Below, piece by piece: positions 6,206-22,207 of a stretch of DNA of 24,000 nucleotides. The stretch covers positions 319,616 to 343,615 of the forward strand of contig FOXT01000004.1 in the NCBI GenBank assembly GCA_900115795.1, given 5' to 3'. Both the position numbers and the translations under genes were made by a program. The stretch comes from Lachnospiraceae bacterium XBB1006. Its GTDB lineage: Bacteria > Bacillota > Clostridia > Lachnospirales > Lachnospiraceae. The notes beneath the pieces are model-generated. The model was not told where the DNA came from and made no database searches. It saw nothing but the letters and a program-made list of their open reading frames with translations. The number at the start of each line of letters is the position of its first letter. The stretch's first letter is position 1.

Positions 6206-7432
6206 TTAAAATAAATATTTCTTTTCCTCAAAAAGTGCTAAGCTTCGCTCTAATATGCCGTTCATATAGGCAATGGCTACCCCGTAATTGGTCATTGGCA
6301 CACCTTGCTGCTGTGCCTGTGCCAGACGATATTTCATCTCTTTTTCATTGAGCATGCATCCACCGCAATGAATAATCAAGTCATAGGTTGACAAGTCTTT
6401 TTCAAAGCCGGTGCCGCTGGTAAAGGCCAACTGCAATTGTTTTCCTGTATACTTCTTAAGAAGTTTTGGCAACTTCTCTGTCCCAATGTCGCCGCACTGT
6501 CGATGGTGGGTGCAGCCTTCCGAAATCAATACCTTTGCCCCATCCTGCAACCTTCCAATAGCGGCTGCTCCCTGAATCTGTTGTTTGAGATTTCCTTTTA
6601 ATCTTGCAAACAGAATAGAAAACGAAGTAAGTGGCACCTCCGCCGGAGTCAGTTTGTCCACAGTCTTAAATGCCTGGCTATCCGTTACTACCATTTTCGG
6701 CGGATTTTTCAGGCTTGCCAAGGTCTGTGGCAACGTCGTTTCCTTCGTAACCATACAGATTGCATTCCCATCTAAAATATCCCGTATGGTCTGTTGCTGT
6801 GGCAAAATCATACGTCCCTTCGGTGCCGCAGCATCAATTGGTGTTACCAATACCACCACATCCTCCGGAGCTAACAAATCCTTAATCAGATCACGTTCTG
6901 CCGTTTCCTTCATGCCTTTGGCTATGAAACTGCGTAATTCGTCTACGCCCTCTTTGGTTATAGCGCTCACAAATCGATAGGGATATTCGTTTGCCCACGA
7001 AGATTGTACAATCATTTTCTTCTGTGCTTCTACCATGGTATCCATCTTATTGATTACAATCACAAACGGCAATTTCTTATCCGTTAATTCTTGCAAAAGA
7101 CGCTTTTCCGCCGCAGATAGCCGGGCATCCTGACCATCTAATACCACAATGGCATAATCAATTCTACGCAGCACTTCAAAGCTTTTCTCAATTCGCTTCT
7201 GCCCCAATTCTCCTTCATCATCCAGTCCCGGAGTATCAATAAATACTACCGGGCCAAGTGGCAAAAGCTCCATCGCCTTCGTTACCGGATCGGTAGTGGT
7301 TCCCTTCACATCAGAAACCACCGCTAATTCCTGCCCGGTTATGGCATTTAATAAACTCGATTTTCCCGCATTCCGATTGCCAAAAATTCCGATGTGCAAC
7401 CGATTTGCGCTTGGTGTTTCGTTTAAACCCAT
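6206..7432 (-). CDS. hydF: [FeFe] hydrogenase H-cluster maturation GTPase HydF
   Basis: GIFGNRNAGKSSLLNA (G1), DTPGLDD (G3), NKMD (G4), and the C-terminal cluster-binding pattern EGCTHH...HCGGCMLN. AGGAGG overlaps the hydG stop. Confidence 0.93.
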   Translation of the reverse strand: MGLNETPSANRLHIGIFGNRNAGKSSLLNAITGQELAVVSDVKGTTTDPVTKAMELLPLGPVVFIDTPGLDDEGELGQKRIEKSFEVLRRIDYAIVVLDGQDARLSAAEKRLLQELTDKKLPFVIVINKMDTMVEAQKKMIVQSSWANEYPYRFVSAITKEGVDELRSFIAKGMKETAERDLIKDLLAPEDVVVLVTPIDAAAPKGRMILPQQQTIRDILDGNAICMVTKETTLPQTLASLKNPPKMVVTDSQAFKTVDKLTPAEVPLTSFSILFARLKGNLKQQIQGAAAIGRLQDGAKVLISEGCTHHRQCGDIGTEKLPKLLKKYTGKQLQLAFTSGTGFEKDLSTYDLIIHCGGCMLNEKEMKYRLAQAQQQGVPMTNYGVAIAYMNGILERSLALFEEKKYLF

Positions 7433-7441
7433 TTTTTCCTC

Positions 7442-8860
7442 CTAGAAACGGAAATCACGCTCACCGGCATCGATGCTGTGAATGTATTTCTTTGCCGTTT
7501 CTTTTACTTTTGGATTTGGAATTTTCTCAAGTTCTGCTTCAATCATCTTCTTACCTGCTGCTTTTACCTCATCCGAAGCATAGTCATCCAGATACTCATT
7601 TAATGTCATAAGCGCATTTGGATGGCAGCAGTTCTGAATCTGGCCGGATTTCAATAACGACATAAAGCGATCGCCGGTTCTTCCTTCACGATAGCATGCG
7701 GTACAGAACGACGGCACATAGCCCATGTCAATCAGCCAGCCTACCACTTCATCAAGGCTACGATTGTCGGATACATCAAACTGGGCAGAGTTGTCATCTT
7801 CCGCTTCTTCCTCAACATAGCCACCTACACTGGTTCTTGATCCTCCGGAAATCTGGGATACACCCAGTTCTAATACCCGTTCTCTTGTTTCTTTGGTCTC
7901 TCTCGTGGAGATAATCATTCCGGTGTACGGAACGGCTACACGGATACAAGCAACAATTTTTGCAAATATGTCATCACTAATTCCATTATCAAACGCATCC
8001 GGATCGATATCATCTGCCCGGCGTACACGTGGTACGGAAATGGTATGTGGTCCACATCCTTTATACTGTTCCAAATGCTCGGCATGCATCAATAAACCAA
8101 CAAAATCATAACGGTATAAATTCAGTCCGAATAATACACCGATTCCAACATCGTCAATGCCTCCATCCATGGCTCTGTCCATGGCTTCCGTATGATATAC
8201 GTAATTGGACTTTGGTCCTGTTGGATGCAACTTTTCATACTGTTCTTTGTTATAGGTTTCCTGGAAGAGAATATAGGTTCCAATTCCTGCTTCCTTTAAC
8301 TTACGATAGTTTTCTACTGTTGTTGCTGCAATGTTGACATTTACACGACGGATTGCGCCGTTTTTATGCTTAATGCTATAAATGGTCTTAATGCTCTCCA
8401 AAATGTACTCTAACGGATTATTTACCGGGTCTTCTCCTGCTTCTAATGCTAATCGTTTGTGTCCCATATCCTGAAGTGCAATCACTTCCTGACGAATTTC
8501 TTCCTGCGTCAGTTTTTTTCTTGCAATGTGTTTGTTTTTTAAGTGGTATGGACAATACTCACATCCATTTACACAATAGTTTGACAAATACAGTGGTGCA
8601 AACATAACGATACGATTTCCATAAAAATCTAGCTTAATCTGTTTTGCCAATGCATAAATTTCCTGGTTTTTTTCCTCGATATCGCAATCAAGAAGCACTA
8701 GCGCTTCTCTATGAGTAAGTCCCTTTCTTAATTTTGCTTTTTCAATGATTTCACTAATTAACTTCTCATTGTGCTTATTTTCTTCGGCATACTTTAGTGT
8801 TTCAAGAATTTCTTCATGATTGATGAATTCCTCTGCGTTTGGTGACATTACATTGTACAT
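7442..8860 (-). CDS. hydG: [FeFe] hydrogenase H-cluster radical SAM maturase HydG
   Basis: 472 aa. Radical-SAM CVNGCEYCPY motif and a C-terminal auxiliary-cluster region (SFCTACYREGRTGDRFM...CHPNALMTL), typical of HydG (ThiH-like). Confidence 0.93.
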   Translation of the reverse strand: MYNVMSPNAEEFINHEEILETLKYAEENKHNEKLISEIIEKAKLRKGLTHREALVLLDCDIEEKNQEIYALAKQIKLDFYGNRIVMFAPLYLSNYCVNGCEYCPYHLKNKHIARKKLTQEEIRQEVIALQDMGHKRLALEAGEDPVNNPLEYILESIKTIYSIKHKNGAIRRVNVNIAATTVENYRKLKEAGIGTYILFQETYNKEQYEKLHPTGPKSNYVYHTEAMDRAMDGGIDDVGIGVLFGLNLYRYDFVGLLMHAEHLEQYKGCGPHTISVPRVRRADDIDPDAFDNGISDDIFAKIVACIRVAVPYTGMIISTRETKETRERVLELGVSQISGGSRTSVGGYVEEEAEDDNSAQFDVSDNRSLDEVVGWLIDMGYVPSFCTACYREGRTGDRFMSLLKSGQIQNCCHPNALMTLNEYLDDYASDEVKAAGKKMIEAELEKIPNPKVKETAKKYIHSIDAGERDFRF

Positions 8861-8872
8861 AGTTCTTTCTCC

Positions 8873-9919
8873 TTATCTTTTATCTTTTTGCGGATCTCCG
8901 CGATCTACTACAAGTTCATATCCGATGCTTTGCATTCGGTTATTTAAACAATTTCGACATTCTGCTGCTTCATCCCCCGTGCAAATCTTATTGTCGTATA
9001 ATTCATACTTCTTCCGCACGTTTGTAGGTGACAGATTCGGCATTACTACATTGGCGCCGGCCAACATTCCTTTTTCTCTTCCTCTTGGGTCGATGGTTCC
9101 AAGTGCGGTAGTTGCCGGTAAAAGCAGGTTCGGTTTTAGCAAGCGCAGCAGCGACAATAAATACAACGTCTGGTTTACGGTTCCACCTTTTTCTTTCGCA
9201 AACGGTGTATCATGATGCGGTACAAACGGTCCGATTCCCACCATGTCCGGCTGCAGTGCTTCAATAAATTTCATATCTTTCGCCAGCGTTTTTGCCGTCT
9301 GTCCGGGAGAACCTACCATAAATCCACATCCCACCTGATAACCAATTTCCTTCAAATCCCATAGGCACTTCATACGATGCTTTAAGGACAATTCTTTCGG
9401 ATGCAGTGTTTCATAATGTGCCTCCTCCGCAGTCTCATGCCGCAGCAAATAGCGGTCTGCTCCCGCTTCAAAAAATCGTTGGTAACTTTCCTTTTCTTTC
9501 TCTCCAACAGACAAGGTCAGTGCACATTCCGGGTAGCCTTCCTTGATTTTACGGATAATGGAAACCATTCGCTCATCGGTATAGTATCCGTCTTCTCCTC
9601 CTTGTAAAACAAAGGTACGAAATCCTAATTCATAGCCCTGGCGGCAGCAGTCCAAAATCTGTTCCTCTGTTAATCGATATCGATTCGCATTTCCATTGCT
9701 TCGACGAATGCCACAATAAAGACAATCATTCTTGCAGTAATTGGTAAACTCAATGAGGCCTCTGGTAAACACCTGCTTTCCATAGATTTGTTCTCTAAGA
9801 TTCTTTGCCCGTTCTGCCGCATACGCACTTAATTCCTCTGTCTGTCCTGCAATTAACTCCTCCCACTGATTTTCTGTCAGCGATTCGCCCGCTGCTACCA
9901 TGTCAATTAACCTTTTCAT
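8873..9919 (-). CDS. hydE: [FeFe] hydrogenase H-cluster radical SAM maturase HydE
   Basis: CKNDCLYCGIRRSN radical-SAM motif in a BioB-like protein located in the hyd maturase operon. The ORF track starts at GTG 9925; I prefer ATG 9919 (GAAGGA 9 nt upstream). Confidence 0.9.
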   Translation of the reverse strand: MKRLIDMVAAGESLTENQWEELIAGQTEELSAYAAERAKNLREQIYGKQVFTRGLIEFTNYCKNDCLYCGIRRSNGNANRYRLTEEQILDCCRQGYELGFRTFVLQGGEDGYYTDERMVSIIRKIKEGYPECALTLSVGEKEKESYQRFFEAGADRYLLRHETAEEAHYETLHPKELSLKHRMKCLWDLKEIGYQVGCGFMVGSPGQTAKTLAKDMKFIEALQPDMVGIGPFVPHHDTPFAKEKGGTVNQTLYLLSLLRLLKPNLLLPATTALGTIDPRGREKGMLAGANVVMPNLSPTNVRKKYELYDNKICTGDEAAECRNCLNNRMQSIGYELVVDRGDPQKDKR

Positions 9920-9933
9920 TCCCACTGTTCCTT

Positions 9934-15609: not shown

Positions 15610-16809
15610 CTACAAAAGAGAATGAATTACGCCATCCCTGCACTGATTCGGGGTAATGCCATAAGGCAGATTCTTAGAATCCATCATATTATGCGCACCC
15701 AAAAATCCCCCAGGCTCAAATGGAAACATGGCCGTATCATACATATTCCCAAGACCGGAAACGATTTTTACAAGGACTACCTTGCGCTTACCGTAACGAC
15801 GAATATTGTGAAAAACGTTTACGGAAGCAGGTTCTACTTCCAACGCCAGAAGCACCTTGCGCAACTTTCCTGCCACACGATCTGCGAAGCGATGTGCCTC
15901 CATGATTCCTTCTGCGCTACGTCCATGACCTTCCTGAAAGGTAACATCCACGTGGATTAGATAATCGGTAGTCGCCGGTATTCCTGCCCTGTCAAACACC
16001 ACCTGATTTTTCAAAAGGCCCTCGGAAGAACCAATATTACTTGGTTGAAAGCCCCCTTCTTCTGCACCGGTCACCATCATGGTTACCCCCGTCATAAGTC
16101 TGGTAATACCTTCTCCTAATTCCCCTTCTTCCTTTGCCGCAATAGGGAAAAAGTCCAAATTAGAGTTTACAAAAAGATGAGTTTGCCCGGGGTCAAGAAC
16201 CGTTACCTTTACCTCTTTAAGGTACGTTTCATCATAAGGAACGTCCAAAATATCCGCAGGTAATAAATCCGGTGAAAACGGATATCGCTTTTGTATCAAT
16301 GTTCCCACTATCTGTTCCGCAATCGTTTCCGAAGTAACCTCTTTACCGGCACGCTTTAATTTCAGTTTTACCAATCCTACCGCTTTTTTGGCATCATAAT
16401 CCGTCAGGTTATTATCGCCTACCACACAGGATTCGTAACCACTTACATTTTTGTTAAAATCCACGATGCAATCCACATAGTCATTATCACAGACTAACCG
16501 TCCCTGCTGACCGATATAGCTTAAGCCGACTGCCGGAATTCCACGACGACCTAATTCCTCAATTACAGAAACAAAATCCACATGATGATTTCCCCAGCCA
16601 TCAATGGCAACCACCGCCGCGTCTGCCTGCATGAGCCTTGCCAAATCCGCGGTGCGTTTTGCTGTGTATTCTTTATCATCGCAAACCTCCGATACCCCGT
16701 CTATGATAATACCGGTAAATTCCAAATCTTTATCTTCTGACAACGCTTTTGTCATCGGGCAGAAAAAATGATGCTTCGTCGTCATTTTGATACTTGGTCC
16801 TAGTCCCAT
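15610..16809 (-). CDS. PrdA-paralogous protein: PrdE-like (alpha-like) domain fused N-terminal to PrdD-like (beta-core-like) domain
   Basis: Start at ATG 16809 with AGGAGG 6 nt upstream, giving 399 aa. The N-terminal half aligns by eye with the PrdA C-terminal fragment, and the C-terminal half aligns with the PrdA segment preceding the cleavage site (see findings). The longer ORF-track start at 17061 overlaps prdB and is rejected. Confidence 0.8.
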   Translation of the reverse strand: MGLGPSIKMTTKHHFFCPMTKALSEDKDLEFTGIIIDGVSEVCDDKEYTAKRTADLARLMQADAAVVAIDGWGNHHVDFVSVIEELGRRGIPAVGLSYIGQQGRLVCDNDYVDCIVDFNKNVSGYESCVVGDNNLTDYDAKKAVGLVKLKLKRAGKEVTSETIAEQIVGTLIQKRYPFSPDLLPADILDVPYDETYLKEVKVTVLDPGQTHLFVNSNLDFFPIAAKEEGELGEGITRLMTGVTMMVTGAEEGGFQPSNIGSSEGLLKNQVVFDRAGIPATTDYLIHVDVTFQEGHGRSAEGIMEAHRFADRVAGKLRKVLLALEVEPASVNVFHNIRRYGKRKVVLVKIVSGLGNMYDTAMFPFEPGGFLGAHNMMDSKNLPYGITPNQCRDGVIHSLL

Positions 16810-16833
16810 AACCATCCTCCTTTTGAAAAATGC

Positions 16834-16872
16834 AAAAAATCGAGCGCGAGAACCCCGCAAGGAGTTCTCCGC
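16834..16872 (-). terminator. Intra-operon intrinsic terminator/attenuator between prdB and the PrdE/D-like gene
   Basis: Minus strand: GCGGAGAACTCC-TTGC-GGGGTTCTC(G)CGC, about 12 bp and GC-rich with a tetraloop, followed by TCGATTTTTTGCA. It lies 20 nt after the prdB stop and about 25 nt before the next RBS. Confidence 0.6.
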
Positions 16873-16891
16873 CCGAAATTTTATCATTACC

Positions 16892-17614
16892 TTATACGTT
16901 ATGTCTGTACTCGTACGGTAATACCTTTGTCTGGTTGTAGCTTGGGCAATCACGAACCCACTCAAGAGATTCTTTGATGATTGCTGTCTGCATGGCTTTA
17001 TTGTTTGGCTCACCGGCATTGGATCCGATTGGCACATGTGGTGCTGTGATACGAGGTGCACCCTGCTGTCTTGCGATTGGAGGTAAAGCAGCGATAACTA
17101 CGCAGCTCATACCAGCTTCTTCACAGCAACGGGTTACGATGGTTGCAGAACGATGACAGGTTCCACATCCTCCGGTACAAAGAACGATATCAACGCCTTG
17201 TGCTTTTAATTTCTTAGCAATTTCCGGACCGGTTTCGTTGGTGAACTTCTCAACATTTCCGCCGCCACCCATGAAGGTGTAGGTTTCATCGGAAAGAGAA
17301 CCAATGAATCCCTCGTCTACCAATTCATGAAGACGATCGATTGGGAACATTGCATTTACGTCCTTGTTGATATCGGAGTTATCAAATCCACCATGTGTAA
17401 CCATCAAATTATCGGATGGAGTATTAAACTCGATGGTACGATAGGAGAAATCTCCGGATGTGTTAAATGGTGTCTGATCTTTTTTATGAATACCACCAGC
17501 AGTGATAAAAGCAACTTTACACTCGCTTAATGGTTTCTTTAATTCTGTAAATACCGGCTTTGGTACAACCGGTACAAAAATTTCGGATTGCATTCCTTCT
17601 TTGGTTGTAAGCAT
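16892..17614 (-). CDS. prdB: D-proline reductase subunit PrdB, Cys-containing (non-selenoprotein) form
   Basis: The 240-aa product matches PrdB throughout as I recall it (EIFVP..., MVTHGGFDNSDINKD.N.MFPIDRLHEL, FMGGGGN, IAALPP..R..G.PR...P.VP.G.NAGEPNN). The redox motif reads CTGGCGTCHRS, with TGT (17165-17167) where PrdB selenoproteins carry UGA. Confidence 0.88.
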   Translation of the reverse strand: MLTTKEGMQSEIFVPVVPKPVFTELKKPLSECKVAFITAGGIHKKDQTPFNTSGDFSYRTIEFNTPSDNLMVTHGGFDNSDINKDVNAMFPIDRLHELVDEGFIGSLSDETYTFMGGGGNVEKFTNETGPEIAKKLKAQGVDIVLCTGGCGTCHRSATIVTRCCEEAGMSCVVIAALPPIARQQGAPRITAPHVPIGSNAGEPNNKAMQTAIIKESLEWVRDCPSYNQTKVLPYEYRHNV

Positions 17615-17627
17615 TTATGTATCCTCC

Positions 17628-18068
17628 TTAAATTGACTCTACTGGAATGTCGCGTTTTCCTACGGCATTCATACAACTGAAATAAAACTGAACGTCCTGT
17701 CCAACTTCTAATGCCACCGGCGTAAACATCCATCGACGCGGAACCGCAATGGTTCCCATGTCGTTCATAATGGCAATTTTCGCAGCCGTGTCGTTTACTT
17801 CAATTATTTTTCCACCCAACAAGCATGGGCTGATTTCATGGCTTGTCACCATATCGCCACTATCGTAGTCATATGGATTTTCCATCACTTCGATATAGCT
17901 AAAGTAAAATTCCATCTCCGTACCCGGTTCTATTGGTTCATCGAATTTTATCAGTTTCTCAGGTACGCAAATTACTCCGAGTCGACCGTGCAGATGGACT
18001 TTAATCATGCCATTCGATACCTCTTTTACCAGGCCGCCCATTTTGATTGGGTTAATCATATATTCCAT
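17628..18068 (-). CDS. Small prd-operon protein with two tandem homologous domains (probably the CBO2463/CBO2479-domain family found between prdA and prdB)
   Basis: 146 aa. Its ATG overlaps the prdA stop (TAATG at 18070-18066). Two roughly 55-aa repeats are visible (GGLVKEV...GVICVP...GTEMEFYFS and GGKIIEV...GTIAVP...GQDVQFYFS). The family name is from memory. Confidence 0.6.
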   Translation of the reverse strand: MEYMINPIKMGGLVKEVSNGMIKVHLHGRLGVICVPEKLIKFDEPIEPGTEMEFYFSYIEVMENPYDYDSGDMVTSHEISPCLLGGKIIEVNDTAAKIAIMNDMGTIAVPRRWMFTPVALEVGQDVQFYFSCMNAVGKRDIPVESI

Positions 18069-19876
18069 TAGTGTAAGGTTCCGTTATCCAATAATACTGT
18101 TTCCGGAAGTCCTAATAACTTGTTATTTGCATTGATAACATCGTTATTCCATTTCTTTTCAGCTGGTTTGATTTCTACACCTGCCATCTTGTTCTTCAAC
18201 ATCTGAATTGCACGGGCTGCAACCTCTTTTGTTACACAAGAACATCCTGCAACGTTATTCTCAAATCCACCCTTATCCATATTTTCTTCTACCATGGCAG
18301 TTGCATACTTGTTTCCAACTACAAGCTGTCCCTGGTAAGCACAGAAGGATACACCAACAACCGGGATACCACGTTTTCCAGCCTGTCCAATGTGCTGTAC
18401 AAAATCGATATGGTTATTTCCAAATCCTTCGGTTGTAATGATACATCCATCGATATCAAGAGACTCAAGTAAGAATCCAAGTCTTTCGGATACCCATAAT
18501 TTTTCATCATTTACCTGTGGGCTTCCTACACATACAACACCGATTAAGTCAAGTTCGGAATCTGCTGCAAGTCCTTCTACGAGCGGCTCACGAATATAAT
18601 GACGGGTCATTTCTTTTGTAGCCGGTCCAATACAGGTTAAAGCATGGATAGAACCGTCTCTTACCTGGTTTGGTGTTAACATAATTGGCACGTTTCCGCA
18701 GTCAACGTTCTTCTGTCCACCAAGGATTCCACATGGCTCATTCGGGCAGATTACGTTATCATGCATAGCACCCTGTCCCATGATTTCTTTTACTAATACA
18801 ACACGTGGGTTACCTGCTCTACGTACGTCTTCACATACTTCTTCACGAACAACTTCACCTTCGTAATTCTTTAATACTTCACGAATTGCCTGGATGATGT
18901 AATCCTGACATTTGTGTGCTGCAAATGGGCCAGGTCTGGTCATACCGGTTAATCTTTCGATTACCGCATGGCAACGAATAATAATATCGTTTTCATCTGC
19001 ACATCCCGGATGTCCAAAATACATCTTCTCATCTAAGTATCCTTCAGATGATCCAAACTCATGTACCTGTACGCCGTCTTCATCAACACCTGTTAACATG
19101 AATACAACACCATCAAGTACTTTGGTTACACCTTCACCAAGCTCTCCCTCTACTTTTGTAGCGATTGGGCAAACGTCCATAATGGTTTCTGTGTAAATGT
19201 GTCTCTTGTCCGGATAGATTACATCAAGCTCTAAGGATTTACATAATGCGTCTTCCAAAACCGCTTTATCTGTCAACTTCTTGTCGATAGTTAATTTTCC
19301 ATCTTTCAAAGATGTTTCGTTTCCGATTTCTACGTCGGTAATCTTAATATGTTTTTTCAGTAATGTACGAATTACTTTCTTTTCTCCTGTTGGTAATGCT
19401 TTTTCTGCAGTTGTTGCTTCTGCAGGCATTCCCTCTGTGCAAACTGCACCATTTACTGCTCCAACCGGAACATCCAGTCTTAAGCCCTCAATCTTATCGG
19501 CTTTATCAATTTCAATATGAATCATGCCATTTCCTCCTACGGTTGTCTTAACCTTTGGTGCAATCACATTCTTTGGTGTGCTTGCAACTTCCGGTGCTGC
19601 CTGTTTTGGTGCTGCCTCGGTTTCATTTACCTTATCAAGCACTTCTCTGGTAATTGGTGTTAACGCCTCAACGTCTGTCAAAAGCGTACTTCCAAGTACC
19701 TGTTCAATCTTAAGTCCATCTGGACTTAATGTAAGAAGACCAGCCTCTACCATATCATCAAAAAGACTTGGATCTTCTAAGTCTGCAGCACTGATAACCA
19801 ATCCTTTTTCTCTTCTGCAGCAGAAAATTGCAGGATCTTTCAAGTGCTGTTGTAATGTCTCATTTGTAATTGACAT
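18068..19876 (-). CDS. prdA: D-proline reductase proprotein PrdA (pyruvoyl enzyme precursor)
   Basis: The N-terminus MSITNETLQQHLKDPAIFCCR resembles C. sticklandii/C. difficile PrdA. Has the conserved EGELGEG core. The putative self-cleavage site ...DGSIHALT|CIGPATKE has Cys415 (TGT, 18632-18634), leaving a 188-aa alpha fragment. Confidence 0.9.
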   Translation of the reverse strand: MSITNETLQQHLKDPAIFCCRREKGLVISAADLEDPSLFDDMVEAGLLTLSPDGLKIEQVLGSTLLTDVEALTPITREVLDKVNETEAAPKQAAPEVASTPKNVIAPKVKTTVGGNGMIHIEIDKADKIEGLRLDVPVGAVNGAVCTEGMPAEATTAEKALPTGEKKVIRTLLKKHIKITDVEIGNETSLKDGKLTIDKKLTDKAVLEDALCKSLELDVIYPDKRHIYTETIMDVCPIATKVEGELGEGVTKVLDGVVFMLTGVDEDGVQVHEFGSSEGYLDEKMYFGHPGCADENDIIIRCHAVIERLTGMTRPGPFAAHKCQDYIIQAIREVLKNYEGEVVREEVCEDVRRAGNPRVVLVKEIMGQGAMHDNVICPNEPCGILGGQKNVDCGNVPIMLTPNQVRDGSIHALTCIGPATKEMTRHYIREPLVEGLAADSELDLIGVVCVGSPQVNDEKLWVSERLGFLLESLDIDGCIITTEGFGNNHIDFVQHIGQAGKRGIPVVGVSFCAYQGQLVVGNKYATAMVEENMDKGGFENNVAGCSCVTKEVAARAIQMLKNKMAGVEIKPAEKKWNNDVINANNKLLGLPETVLLDNGTLH

Positions 19877-19895: not shown

Positions 19896-21203
19896 TTATT
19901 TTTTTATTGCTCTAACGATTTTGTGGTTCACTGCACGCAACGCGCCATCTGTGCAGTGATAAACCGGTAATCCCATTTTTGGAGCGCAAGACATAACGGT
20001 GTTGGAACAATCTGTACAATTTCCAATCAAAACTGCCTGTGCACCGGCTTTCTTCAATGCCATGACCTTCTGTACCTGACCCGGGCATCTTCCCGGATTC
20101 TCGCATTTCAAGTTTCCATTTACTTCCTTTGCCTGCTTACAGCATTCAACTCCTACAACCTTTGAACCAAGGCTTTCTGCCAACTGATGCATACGCTCTT
20201 TGTTTGCACCGCAAGCACAAACCAAAAGTCCAATTTTTTCCGGTCCTTTCGGGAAACATTCTGCAGCAATTAAGCCTCCGGTTGTCTTCACAACCACATC
20301 TTCCATGGTCGTTCTCTTTCCGGTAAACGGTCCACCCATAATAAGTTCGCCGCAATCCGGATTAACGCCCCCTGCACGGTCAAACATGGTTTGCACCGGT
20401 GTTCCAATTGCTACATCCATGAAAACCTGTACCAACTTATCCTGCGCATTTCCGGCAATTTTACCACCCACGGTCATATCCTTGTCGATCAACGGTTTCT
20501 TCTCATCTACCGCTTCTGCTATTCTACATGCCGTTTCTGCATTGATTACAATGGCATTTGCCTCAAGCGGAAGTGCCGTTACCGGCAAAACCTCACCAAA
20601 TACTTCACGAATAATCGCACGCTCTTCCCCCATTGGATACATATCAATTAATGGAACAATTCGCATTCCTTTATAATTTCCAAGGATTTTTCTCAACGCA
20701 TCGATTGCTTCCTTATGGTACTCTTTGATGGCCACCACGCCGTTTGTTGCCCCCGCTACTTCCATAGCAATTTCAAGTCCACGTAAGAGCTGTTCCGGTC
20801 TTTTCTCTATACGCGCAATATTATGAGAAAGAATCGGTTCGCACTCCGCTGCATTGATAATAACGGTTCCTTTTTCGCCTAATGGTTTTGAAAACTTTGC
20901 ATACGTCGGGAATCCCGCGCCACCAAGTCCAACCAAACCCGCCTCTTCAATCAGCTCAAGCGGTTTCTTCTTTTTCAGCTTTACATAGCCGGCACTCTGC
21001 TTTTCATCCGGGTCCACAACAATTTCTGTTTCATTCACAGAAACAACGGTACCTGCGATACTGGAAAAAATATTGGCCCCCAAGCCATCCTGCGGCTTTG
21101 CCGCTATCATCTCTCCACGTTTCACCTTTGCTCCGGTCTGTATTACAGCAACCGACGGCTTTCCTATACACTGTTTCAGAGGAAAACGGTAAAGTTCTGA
21201 CAT
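19896..21203 (-). CDS. prdC: Proline reductase-associated electron transfer protein PrdC (RnfC-like)
   Basis: 435 aa. RnfC/NuoF-like LVGLGGAGFPTYAKF...IINAAECEPIL region, Cys-rich C-terminus, located directly upstream of prdA. GGAGGAG lies 6 nt upstream of the ATG. Confidence 0.85.
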   Translation of the reverse strand: MSELYRFPLKQCIGKPSVAVIQTGAKVKRGEMIAAKPQDGLGANIFSSIAGTVVSVNETEIVVDPDEKQSAGYVKLKKKKPLELIEEAGLVGLGGAGFPTYAKFSKPLGEKGTVIINAAECEPILSHNIARIEKRPEQLLRGLEIAMEVAGATNGVVAIKEYHKEAIDALRKILGNYKGMRIVPLIDMYPMGEERAIIREVFGEVLPVTALPLEANAIVINAETACRIAEAVDEKKPLIDKDMTVGGKIAGNAQDKLVQVFMDVAIGTPVQTMFDRAGGVNPDCGELIMGGPFTGKRTTMEDVVVKTTGGLIAAECFPKGPEKIGLLVCACGANKERMHQLAESLGSKVVGVECCKQAKEVNGNLKCENPGRCPGQVQKVMALKKAGAQAVLIGNCTDCSNTVMSCAPKMGLPVYHCTDGALRAVNHKIVRAIKK

Positions 21204-21328: not shown

Positions 21329-22207
21329 ATGGATAATCTAGTTAAATACAAATTGTTTTCTATTACCGCCCAAACCGGTAATATTTCCAAAACTGCAGAA
21401 ATGACAGGCTATACCCAATCCGGGGTCAGTCACACCCTCAAGCGCTTAGAAGAGGAAGTAAATATGCAGCTATTTATTCGAGACCGCTATGGTGTGCGTC
21501 TTACTCCGGTGGGGAAAGAATTTCTACGCTATGTAAACAGTCTCCTCTCCGAAGAGGAAAAATTACGCCAATTCGTTTACGATACCAATGGCATCGAATA
21601 TGGCACACTAACCATCGGCACCTATACCAGTATCTGTACCCATCTACTTCCTACGTTGTTAAATGACTTCCACGAGGACCATCCCGGCATTCAGATTAAG
21701 CTTCGAGAAGGTGGAATCAAAGAATTGGAGAATTGGCTAAATCGCCGGGAAGTTGACATGATTTTTTGCAGTCGGCAGGACAATGCCAATTATTCCTTTC
21801 ATCCGTTGAAGAAAGACGCATTCATGGCCGTATTGCCGAAAGATTATGAGATTGAAAAGGATACGTTTCCCATTGTTTCCTTCCAGAATACCCCCTCGAT
21901 TCTCCCGGAAGCAGAAGTGGATTCTGACATCTATACACTATTAAAGGAGCAGCATGTCACTCCGCAGATTCGTTACACCGCCAAGGAAAACCTTACCATC
22001 CTTGCAATGGTGGATAAACACTTGGGTATCTCCATAATCCCTGCTCTGGCACTTGAGAATTCCCCCTGGGATATCCATGCACTGCCACTTCACCCTCCTT
22101 ACGCCAGGGAACTTGGAATCGGCTATTTGGACGATGAAAGCCTTTCTCCCATCGGGAAAAAATTTCTTTGGTTTGTACAGGAATATTTTCCCTGCAAAGA
22201 AGAATAA
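21329..22207 (+). CDS. LysR-family transcriptional regulator, divergent from the prd operon
   Basis: MDNLVKYKLFSITAQTGNISKTAEMTGYTQSGVSHTLKRLEEE is a LysR-type HTH, followed by a substrate-binding domain. I place the start at ATG 21329 (CAGGAG 5 nt upstream) rather than TTG 21272. Confidence 0.88.
   Translation: MDNLVKYKLFSITAQTGNISKTAEMTGYTQSGVSHTLKRLEEEVNMQLFIRDRYGVRLTPVGKEFLRYVNSLLSEEEKLRQFVYDTNGIEYGTLTIGTYTSICTHLLPTLLNDFHEDHPGIQIKLREGGIKELENWLNRREVDMIFCSRQDNANYSFHPLKKDAFMAVLPKDYEIEKDTFPIVSFQNTPSILPEAEVDSDIYTLLKEQHVTPQIRYTAKENLTILAMVDKHLGISIIPALALENSPWDIHALPLHPPYARELGIGYLDDESLSPIGKKFLWFVQEYFPCKEE

Follow-up and report, generated by a model that had tools for sequence, protein, structure and literature searches.

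A PrdE-PrdD fusion that aligns with the PrdA core as a circular permutation about the processing site

We describe a protein, here called ED (also PrdED), in which the two accessory units of D-proline reductase operons, PrdE and PrdD, are fused in that order into a single chain. Its gene lies on the minus strand at positions 15610..16809 (399 amino acids plus stop) of a 24,000-nucleotide stretch of Lachnospiraceae bacterium XBB1006 (contig FOXT01000004.1, positions 319,616 to 343,615), which we refer to as the window. The gene is defined by its open reading frame, start codon and ribosome-binding site, by swapped matches to the proprotein PrdA, and by homologues with identical termini. An earlier sequence-only reading had placed it at these coordinates, correctly but without giving the strand, and had proposed a circularly permuted PrdA paralogue. 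Our overall view, held with rather better than even confidence, is that ED is a single-chain, permuted and non-catalytic paralogue of the PrdA core and the counterpart of PrdD plus PrdE, that it arose by gene fission and fusion, and that it serves as a pseudoenzyme partner of the reductase.

The Gly_reductase/PrdA superfamily and the PrdD and PrdE units are already known, and ED is their fused, reordered form. What is new here is the link between ED and a selenium-free PrdB, the existence of extant fission and fusion intermediates, and a conserved hairpin after prdB. The protein is unlikely to astonish specialists in Stickland metabolism. It would deserve an annotation of its own, to replace ‘glycine/sarcosine/betaine reductase component B subunit’.

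Architecture and family of ED

Comparison with the PrdA encoded in the window carries the main result. By BLASTP, ED residues 3-158 match PrdA residues 416-569 (35% identity, E 5e-29), and ED residues 193-398 match PrdA residues 208-413 without gaps (37% identity, E 1e-43), a similarity far beyond chance. The two segments do not overlap, together cover the core in swapped order and place both new termini at one point of the parent, which is the pattern expected of a circularly permuted homologue. The register of the first alignment pairs L3 with I416 and hence sets Gly2 opposite the pyruvoyl-forming Cys415, Met1 being the initiator only; that of the second pairs L398 with L413, so that the last residue, Leu399, lies opposite Thr414, the final residue of the PrdA beta chain. 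On these alignments the ED chain begins and ends exactly at the PrdA cleavage position. The sequence-only reading had made the same assignments, namely a PrdE/PrdA-alpha-like half followed by a PrdD/PrdA-beta-like half, the order reversed about the self-cleavage position and Gly in place of the pyruvoyl-forming Cys, and both BLASTP and the family models bear it out.

The PrdE-like half comprises residues 1-158 (16336..16809) and opens as stand-alone PrdE proteins do, with MG[ILV]GPS; the PrdD-like half comprises residues 193-399 (15613..16233). Between them lies a connector, residues 159-192 (16234..16335), which coincides with the alignment gap, has a predicted strand at about 165-177 and represents what is left of the strands with which the PrdD-like domain begins. 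The ED of the window, together with P0001-P0003, L001 and L002, carries an in-frame deletion of 16 residues in the first hairpin of the PrdD-like unit when compared with P0006-P0118. This deletion accounts for a length of 399 residues against about 415 in most family members, and for the PrdD model matching only from its position 37.

Searches with profile hidden Markov models agree with this domain order, as the sequence-only reading had expected. Pfam Gly_reductase (PF09338, a family that also holds GrdE and GrdG) matches ED residues 6-101 with profile positions 246-345 at 61.8 bits against a cutoff of 22.2, which places ED in the superfamily; being linear, the profile cannot span both halves because they are swapped. 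The PrdA equivalog model TIGR04480 matches in two separate stretches and reaches 306.9 bits against a cutoff of 700, so ED is not a member of PrdA proper. Likewise, the PrdD equivalog TIGR04482 gives 220.3 bits against a cutoff of 320, with model positions 37-245 on residues 191-398. ED ends where PrdD ends, but it is not a stand-alone protein of about 250 amino acids; its N-terminus and homology fit PrdE, but the separate PrdE protein of about 155 amino acids is absent, this unit being fused to the PrdD-like one. No PrdE-specific NCBIfam or Pfam model turned up in the general family scans of this analysis, and in RefSeq stand-alone PrdE bears the generic name ‘component B subunit’.

ED and PrdA share about 360 homologous residues at 35-37% identity and, as far as alignment can tell, differ by the permutation about the processing site, the exchange of Cys for Gly, and the loss of cleavage and pyruvoyl formation. 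In a pyruvoyl enzyme of this type, the processing site holds a Cys or Ser that lies inside the chain, after the beta chain, and cleavage there leaves a pyruvoyl group at the new N-terminus; ED has no such arrangement. Across 25 diverse members the equivalent position is Gly in 23 and Ser in two, and there too the Ser has no preceding chain to be cleaved. Since only the initiator Met precedes Gly2, ED cannot form a pyruvoyl group; and because the chain begins and ends at the PrdA cut, with Gly replacing Cys, it can never be cleaved or carry one.

Two further parts of PrdA have no counterpart in ED: residues 1-170, and the C-terminal tail (about 570-602), which carries a W-x3-V-x3-N motif conserved among PrdA proteins. 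The sequence-only reading had noted the absence of an N-terminal region of roughly 200 amino acids. Experiments on Clostridioides difficile PrdA found that higher-order oligomerisation depends on residues 1-148, and that PrdB binding depends on a short stretch near the C-terminus that lies between residues 584 and 612 (PMC11229817). ED lacks the regions corresponding to both, and it also differs from PrdA at several polar positions that are invariant in the latter.

We compared residues at 140 PrdA positions that are at least 95% conserved among 78 PrdA sequences and can be mapped onto ED. ED retains 80 of them, for the most part Gly, Pro and residues of the core. At the remaining 60 it has another residue, which in many cases is conserved just as strongly. 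Besides C415 (G2 in ED), the replaced positions include E273 (N258, 99%), H372 (Y357, 99%), Q368 (L353), E422 (M9) and N488 (H75). Invariant motifs specific to ED are GFQPSNIGSSEG, SGLGNMYD and the C-terminal HSLL. ED is under purifying selection with a signature of its own, and the combination of kept fold residues and changed polar ones is a pseudoenzyme pattern, with the fold retained and the chemistry lost.

An AlphaFold2 model built on an alignment of 69 sequences shows one compact fold, with a mean predicted local distance difference test score of 79 and a predicted template modelling score of 0.84; a run with 14 sequences was poorer. Confidence is low in segments 1-7, 101-107, 257-260, 352-378 and 397-399, that is, at both termini and in the loops with the most conserved motifs, and this would fit, as a weak indication from the model, parts of the chain that take on order once a partner or ligand is bound.

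The family is large. A search of 5.8 billion proteins gave 342 relatives, and the best 120 of these 342, which we aligned, are all full-length (371-435 amino acids). The start MGLGPS is found in 113 of the 120, the remainder being longer gene calls that contain MGLGPS, and 115 of the 120 end in IHSLL; the shared N-terminus in the alignments reads MGLGPSIKMTT. Representatives at 50% identity include ten full-length ED clusters in the E-then-D order, down to 38% identity, and even the most distant of them open with M-[GS]-x-[GS]-P-S-x-K and have exactly six residues left after a conserved DG. The same set of representatives also holds PrdA-type proteins (D-then-E, 550-670 amino acids) and stand-alone proteins of PrdD type (about 245-265 amino acids) and PrdE type (about 153-173 amino acids).

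A scan seeded on ED, with one genome per species, found the gene in 62 species genomes. Carriers among the Lachnospiraceae are Dorea, Muricomes, Extibacter, Johnsonella, Lachnoanaerobaculum and Mediterraneibacter; others include Clostridium drakei, C. aromativorans and C. lapidicellarium, Peptostreptococcus anaerobius and P. russellii, Gemella, Anaerotignum propionicum, Aedoeadaptatus and Mogibacterium, and ED is also encoded on a megaplasmid of Enterococcus gilvus. RefSeq and UniProt use generic names for these proteins (‘glycine/sarcosine/betaine reductase component B subunit’, ‘proline reductase’, ‘D-proline reductase’). ED is a large and old family, common in gut and oral anaerobes, that sits in the databases under generic names, and it appears to be undescribed in the searchable literature: full-text searches found no paper describing a PrdE-PrdD fusion. 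The sequence-only reading, which did not know of a described E-then-D fusion, was to that extent right, but the rarity it implied is contradicted by the 62 species genomes and by 13 of the 26 Cys-PrdB lineages, from metagenomic loci seeded on PrdA, described below.

Six Cys residues (C17, C43, C107, C114, C128 and C390) show 81-95% conservation within the main ED clade; at four of these sites PrdA has an invariant residue other than Cys. We considered an ED-specific metal or redox site and rejected it: across the clade whose members accompany the highly conserved Cys-PrdB, C17 and C128 are the only two maintained, and distant EDs lack them, which leaves a feature of one clade.

Selenium-free PrdB and the origin of the fusion

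The prdB gene upstream of ED (16892..17614, minus strand; TIGR04483, 453.9 bits against a cutoff of 300) encodes Cys150, within CTGGCGTC, in place of selenocysteine and contains no in-frame TGA. The operon's electron-transfer protein PrdC (19896..21203, minus strand; TIGR04481, 614.9 bits against a cutoff of 490) is likewise a Cys form, with the motif CPGQ. Because PrdB has Cys (TGC) and PrdC has CPGQ, the operon of the window is selenium-free throughout.

The same association holds widely. The comparison of PrdB types covers L001-L062, L063, L065 and L066-L145. All 52 ED-seeded loci with a linked prdB have Cys (TGC or TGT) at the selenocysteine position, and their PrdB proteins are 82-100% identical to that of the window across distant Firmicutes taxa. 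The single TGA-type PrdB seen in ED-seeded loci belongs to a second cluster of one genome, where a classical PrdD follows it. Two plasmids show the same contrast, that of E. gilvus carrying ED with a Cys PrdB and that of Ligilactobacillus salivarius carrying prdD-prdE-prdF with a TGA PrdB and selA and selB nearby.

Since a set seeded on ED is biased by its query, we also classified 80 metagenomic loci seeded on PrdA, which were dereplicated at 90% PrdA identity into lineages, with accessory genes scored within several kb. Among the 26 Cys-PrdB lineages, fused ED is present in cis in 13, unfused prdE-prdD in one and prdD-prdE in none, and 12 have no accessory gene. The lineages with a selenocysteine (Sec, TGA) PrdB show the opposite picture: prdD-prdE in six, unfused prdE-prdD in none, fused ED in one (L119) and no accessory gene in one. 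The hypergeometric probability of the two-by-two distribution of ED and prdD-prdE over PrdB types is about 2e-4, phylogenetic dependence being ignored. Fused ED thus goes mostly with Cys-type PrdB and split prdD-prdE with Sec-type PrdB; the association is strong, not absolute. A strict rule by which ED implies Cys-PrdB and vice versa was rejected, as L119 combines fused ED with a TGA-type PrdB and 12 Cys-type lineages have no ED in cis.

Orphan ED genes also occur. Those of L004, L013, L039, L060 and L061 (ED at about 8001-9248 or the equivalent) are surrounded by unrelated genes, and a stretch of 8 kb around them contains neither prdA nor prdB. ED may often be encoded away from the operon, and such orphans may serve operons that have no ED in cis. 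The link to Cys-PrdB points to a distinct, selenium-independent class of reductase, present in Dorea, Extibacter, Muricomes, Peptostreptococcus, Johnsonella, Gemella and Enterococcus; some commensal Clostridia have been reported to compete with C. difficile for proline (PMC7918557).

PrdD and PrdE bear on the source of the termini. PrdD and PrdE (with PrdE2) of C. difficile, Acetoanaerobium (Clostridium) sticklandii, Terrisporobacter and L. salivarius represent the same two homology units as ED, PrdD matching the middle (beta) part and PrdE the C-terminal (alpha) part of PrdA, as the ED halves do. They also share with ED the Gly for Cys, the absence of the PrdA N-terminal region and C-terminal tail, and the slot after prdB behind a structured spacer. 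ED differs from them in being one polypeptide, in its E-then-D order, in its own invariant motifs and in occurring mostly with Cys-type PrdB. The two proteins were reportedly first noted when Kabisch et al. sequenced the C. sticklandii prd genes in 1999.

Stand-alone PrdE begins MG[ILV]GPS and stand-alone PrdD ends ...DGA[LI]RALT, the same cleavage-equivalent positions as the ED termini. The exactness of these termini, which the sequence-only reading had tied to the permutation, is real, but it was inherited: stand-alone PrdD and PrdE already have cleavage-site termini, so the fusion did not create them. Judging from the alignments, what the fusion joined was the C-terminus of PrdE to the N-terminus of PrdD. 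The order prdD then prdE is found in the described prd operons (PMC3091704, PMC11229817, PMC13463711) and on the annotated Terrisporobacter and L. salivarius plasmids, in keeping with the sequence-only reading. The metagenomic locus L113 (4699-6104) carries a separate prdE, with an MGIGPS start, followed by prdD in a different frame, after a Cys-type prdB/prd operon; this split pair may be an intermediate towards the fusion or a secondary split of ED. In rough neighbour-joining trees, which are indicative only, the E-halves of ED group with PrdE and not with PrdA alpha, and the D-halves form a clade of their own within which the stand-alone PrdD-like P0137, P0144 and P0145 fall.

Most probably, a PrdA paralogue was split at the processing site to give prdD and prdE, the gene order then changed to prdE-prdD, and the two genes were fused to yield ED. 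As contiguous PrdA, prdD-prdE, prdE-prdD (in L113) and fused ED are all extant, fission and fusion provide the simplest origin of the permutation. Duplication followed by deletion is less likely, for we found no tandem PrdA-PrdA intermediates, whereas intermediates of fission and fusion exist. Circular permutation by gene fission and fusion is a general evolutionary mechanism. In the case of ED all stages can be observed, and the break point is a natural autoprocessing site; for this reason, the permuted protein reproduces the chain ends of the mature two-chain enzyme. It offers a clean example of this route, with every intermediate arrangement still in existence.

Proposed function and its alternatives

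That ED is an accessory, non-catalytic component of the prd system is very probable. It is linked to prdA, prdB, prdC and prdH in most of the 62 loci and on the E. gilvus plasmid. The initiator Met would be removed, as expected before Gly, leaving a free glycyl N-terminus and a free C-terminus at the places held in mature PrdA by the pyruvoyl group and the end of the beta chain. The description of ED as a mimic of processed PrdA is, on the aligned sequences, a reasonable one. As a pseudoenzyme partner it would fold like processed PrdA and might bind, stabilise or modulate the PrdA/PrdB reductase; that it acts by binding PrdA or PrdB is, however, a tentative proposal to which we give somewhat less than an even chance and which draws on analogies.

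For PrdD and PrdE, a stabilising role has been suggested by analogy with GrdE fragments and GrdB (PMC3091704), and a natural single-chain ED supports the idea that the two work as one unit shaped like cleaved PrdA. The second analogy, and the best precedent, is the trypanosomatid AdoMetDC prozyme (ADL), a dead, uncleaved paralogue of a pyruvoyl enzyme that heterodimerises with its active relative in Trypanosoma and activates it about 1200-fold (PMC3686867). Like ED, it is a conserved paralogue of a pyruvoyl enzyme that has neither self-processing nor catalysis, and in this functional sense the two are analogous. The prozyme has an unrelated fold and pathway, is not permuted and has demonstrated partner binding, whereas ED is known as a sequence. 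As a single chain, ED should be simpler to express, to study structurally and to use in pull-downs, and it makes the question of what PrdD and PrdE do more tractable.

A stem-loop between prdB and ED may bear on how much of the protein is made. The element (16826..16883, minus strand) consists of a GC-rich hairpin of 16 bp followed by a U-run, with a minimum free energy of -35.3 kcal/mol, a z score of -5.06 and none of 200 shuffles as stable. Strongly structured spacers (z < -2) occur at 34 of 35 related prdB-ED junctions, with a median z of -4.7, against medians of -0.05 for prdH-prdB and -1.7 for prdC-prdA spacers. A structured spacer also precedes prdD in Sec-type operons (L117, L123, L124 and L135), and in nearly all operons of the two types the stem-loop is often accompanied by a U-run. 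This conservation before both genes puts ED in the regulatory position that prdD and prdE occupy. Rfam gave no matches in the window, and the hairpin after prdB corresponds to no RNA family described so far. The hairpin may act as a partial terminator or a 3' stabiliser of the mRNA that sets the ratio of catalytic to accessory protein, and it suggests that ED is made in smaller amounts than the catalytic subunits.

Several points weigh against the partner reading. The function of PrdD and PrdE is stated as unknown in PMC11229817, and in the same study recombinant PrdA, PrdB and PrdH alone give active enzyme in vitro, so an accessory protein is not strictly required for catalysis or cleavage. 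In 12 of the 26 Cys-PrdB lineages ED is missing from the surrounding several kb, and orphan ED genes exist, which means that ED either acts in trans or is dispensable. As ED lacks the PrdB-binding tail of PrdA, any contact between ED and PrdB must be of a different kind. Comparison of the ED model with solved structures found no resembling fold, and the stem-loop is the one feature that suggests lower expression.

The same stem-loop would also suit a different role, in which ED is a sub-stoichiometric assembly or maturation chaperone, a product-shaped mimic that holds PrdB or displaces PrdH from newly cleaved PrdA and is not part of the final complex. We regard this as unlikely, though it has points in its favour: a terminator-like element before ED and before prdD suggests expression below that of PrdA, PrdH and PrdB, PrdA has to be cleaved before PrdH lets go of it, assembly requires prior processing, and the purified enzyme is reported with PrdA-derived chains and PrdB only (PMC11229817). 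Yet processing and activity in vitro need nothing beyond PrdA, PrdB and PrdH (PMC11229817), and the stem-loop could simply stabilise the upstream mRNA.

ED could instead be a ligand-binding subunit, not an inert scaffold, whose preserved pocket, with a free glycyl amine where PrdA has the pyruvoyl carbonyl, binds D-proline or 5-aminovalerate non-covalently, as a sensor of substrate or product or as a delivery subunit. Most motifs lining the PrdA cleavage and active-site region (GP-K-T-HH, G[FW]GN-H-DF, GSSEG, G-G-M-D and DG-IH-L) are indeed retained, or have given way to residues that are no less invariant; the termini always fall at the same positions, and a regulator gene lies near the operon. 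What makes this reading improbable is that ED has exchanged those polar, PrdA-invariant residues that would be the likeliest substrate contacts (E273N, H372Y, E422M) and that Pfam and NCBIfam scans found no DNA-binding or signalling domain in ED.

We give similarly little credence to a stronger form of the partner reading, by analogy with the prozyme, in which ED would be a required and specific partner of the Cys-PrdB reductase that heterodimerises with the PrdA core to tune or activate an enzyme lacking the reactivity of selenocysteine. If it were true, permuting the chain at the processing site would be a natural means of fixing the ‘cleaved’ conformation with no chemistry involved, and ED would mark a distinct and widespread class of selenium-independent Stickland reductases in gut commensals.

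The gene, its operon and neighbouring genes

The ED reading frame runs without interruption from the ATG at 16809-16807 to its stop and is preceded by a Shine-Dalgarno sequence, AAGGAGG (16816..16822, minus strand), read directly in the sequence, with a 6-nt spacer. A second in-frame ATG (16815), two codons upstream, abuts the Shine-Dalgarno sequence. A longer frame from a GTG at 17061 (483 amino acids) was rejected as the true start, as it overlaps prdB and has no ribosome-binding site, and no homologue reaches upstream of MGLGPS. Independent assemblies contain the same single open reading frame (L001 at 97% identity, L002 at 85%, and about 130 further full-length proteins), so that no frameshift or stop splits it, a risk the sequence-only reading had raised. 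That the fusion is an artefact, with a frameshift, assembly error or misread stop merging a separate prdE and prdD such as L113 does carry in that order, can be dismissed as next to impossible, given one uninterrupted frame with a start and ribosome-binding site, a connector conserved in frame, and the same frame in those homologues, some of which come from the E. gilvus plasmid or from genomes sequenced to completion (Clostridium scatologenes, C. drakei and Extibacter muris).

ED is the last gene of a minus-strand operon in the order prdC-prdA-prdH-prdB-ED. PrdA (18068..19876, minus strand; TIGR04480, 894 bits against a cutoff of 700) is a proprotein of 602 amino acids with the cleavage motif HALT|CIGPAT (T414|C415). 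Between prdA and prdB, a prdH-like gene (17628..18068, minus strand) encodes a maturation factor of 146 amino acids with two tandem CBO2463 domains; NF041553 matches it in two stretches, and its two halves share 32% identity (E 2e-10). The characterised PrdH of C. difficile is a homodimer of 92 amino acids (PMC11229817), and the PrdH of this operon type, by its sequence, looks like a fused pseudo-dimer that parallels the fusion of PrdE to PrdD.

A divergent gene for a LysR-type regulator (21329..22207, plus strand), a homologue of which adjoins the operon in 29 related loci, stands in place of the sigma-54 activator PrdR of C. difficile; neither PrdR nor a proline racemase (prdF) is encoded in the window, and prdF follows ED in only some related loci. 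Genome loci usually show the gene order of the window, sometimes ED-prdC-prdA-prdH-prdB, or ED divergent from the operon. Downstream of ED in the window lie unrelated genes for a solute-binding protein and a hybrid histidine kinase. Upstream in the window, at 6206-9925 on the minus strand, are radical-SAM genes that are HydF, HydG-like and HydE-like by their Pfam domains ([FeFe]-hydrogenase maturation) and apparently unrelated to the prd operon.

A separate observation concerns PrdA and PrdB. In P0135, P0138, P0139 and P0142, PrdA-like sequence runs directly into PrdB-like sequence and stops at ...LT[GA]G, the point at which one would expect the selenocysteine codon; three of the four have no PrdA N-terminal region. 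To judge from these sequences, they look like PrdA-PrdB fusion selenoproteins with gene calls truncated at the UGA.

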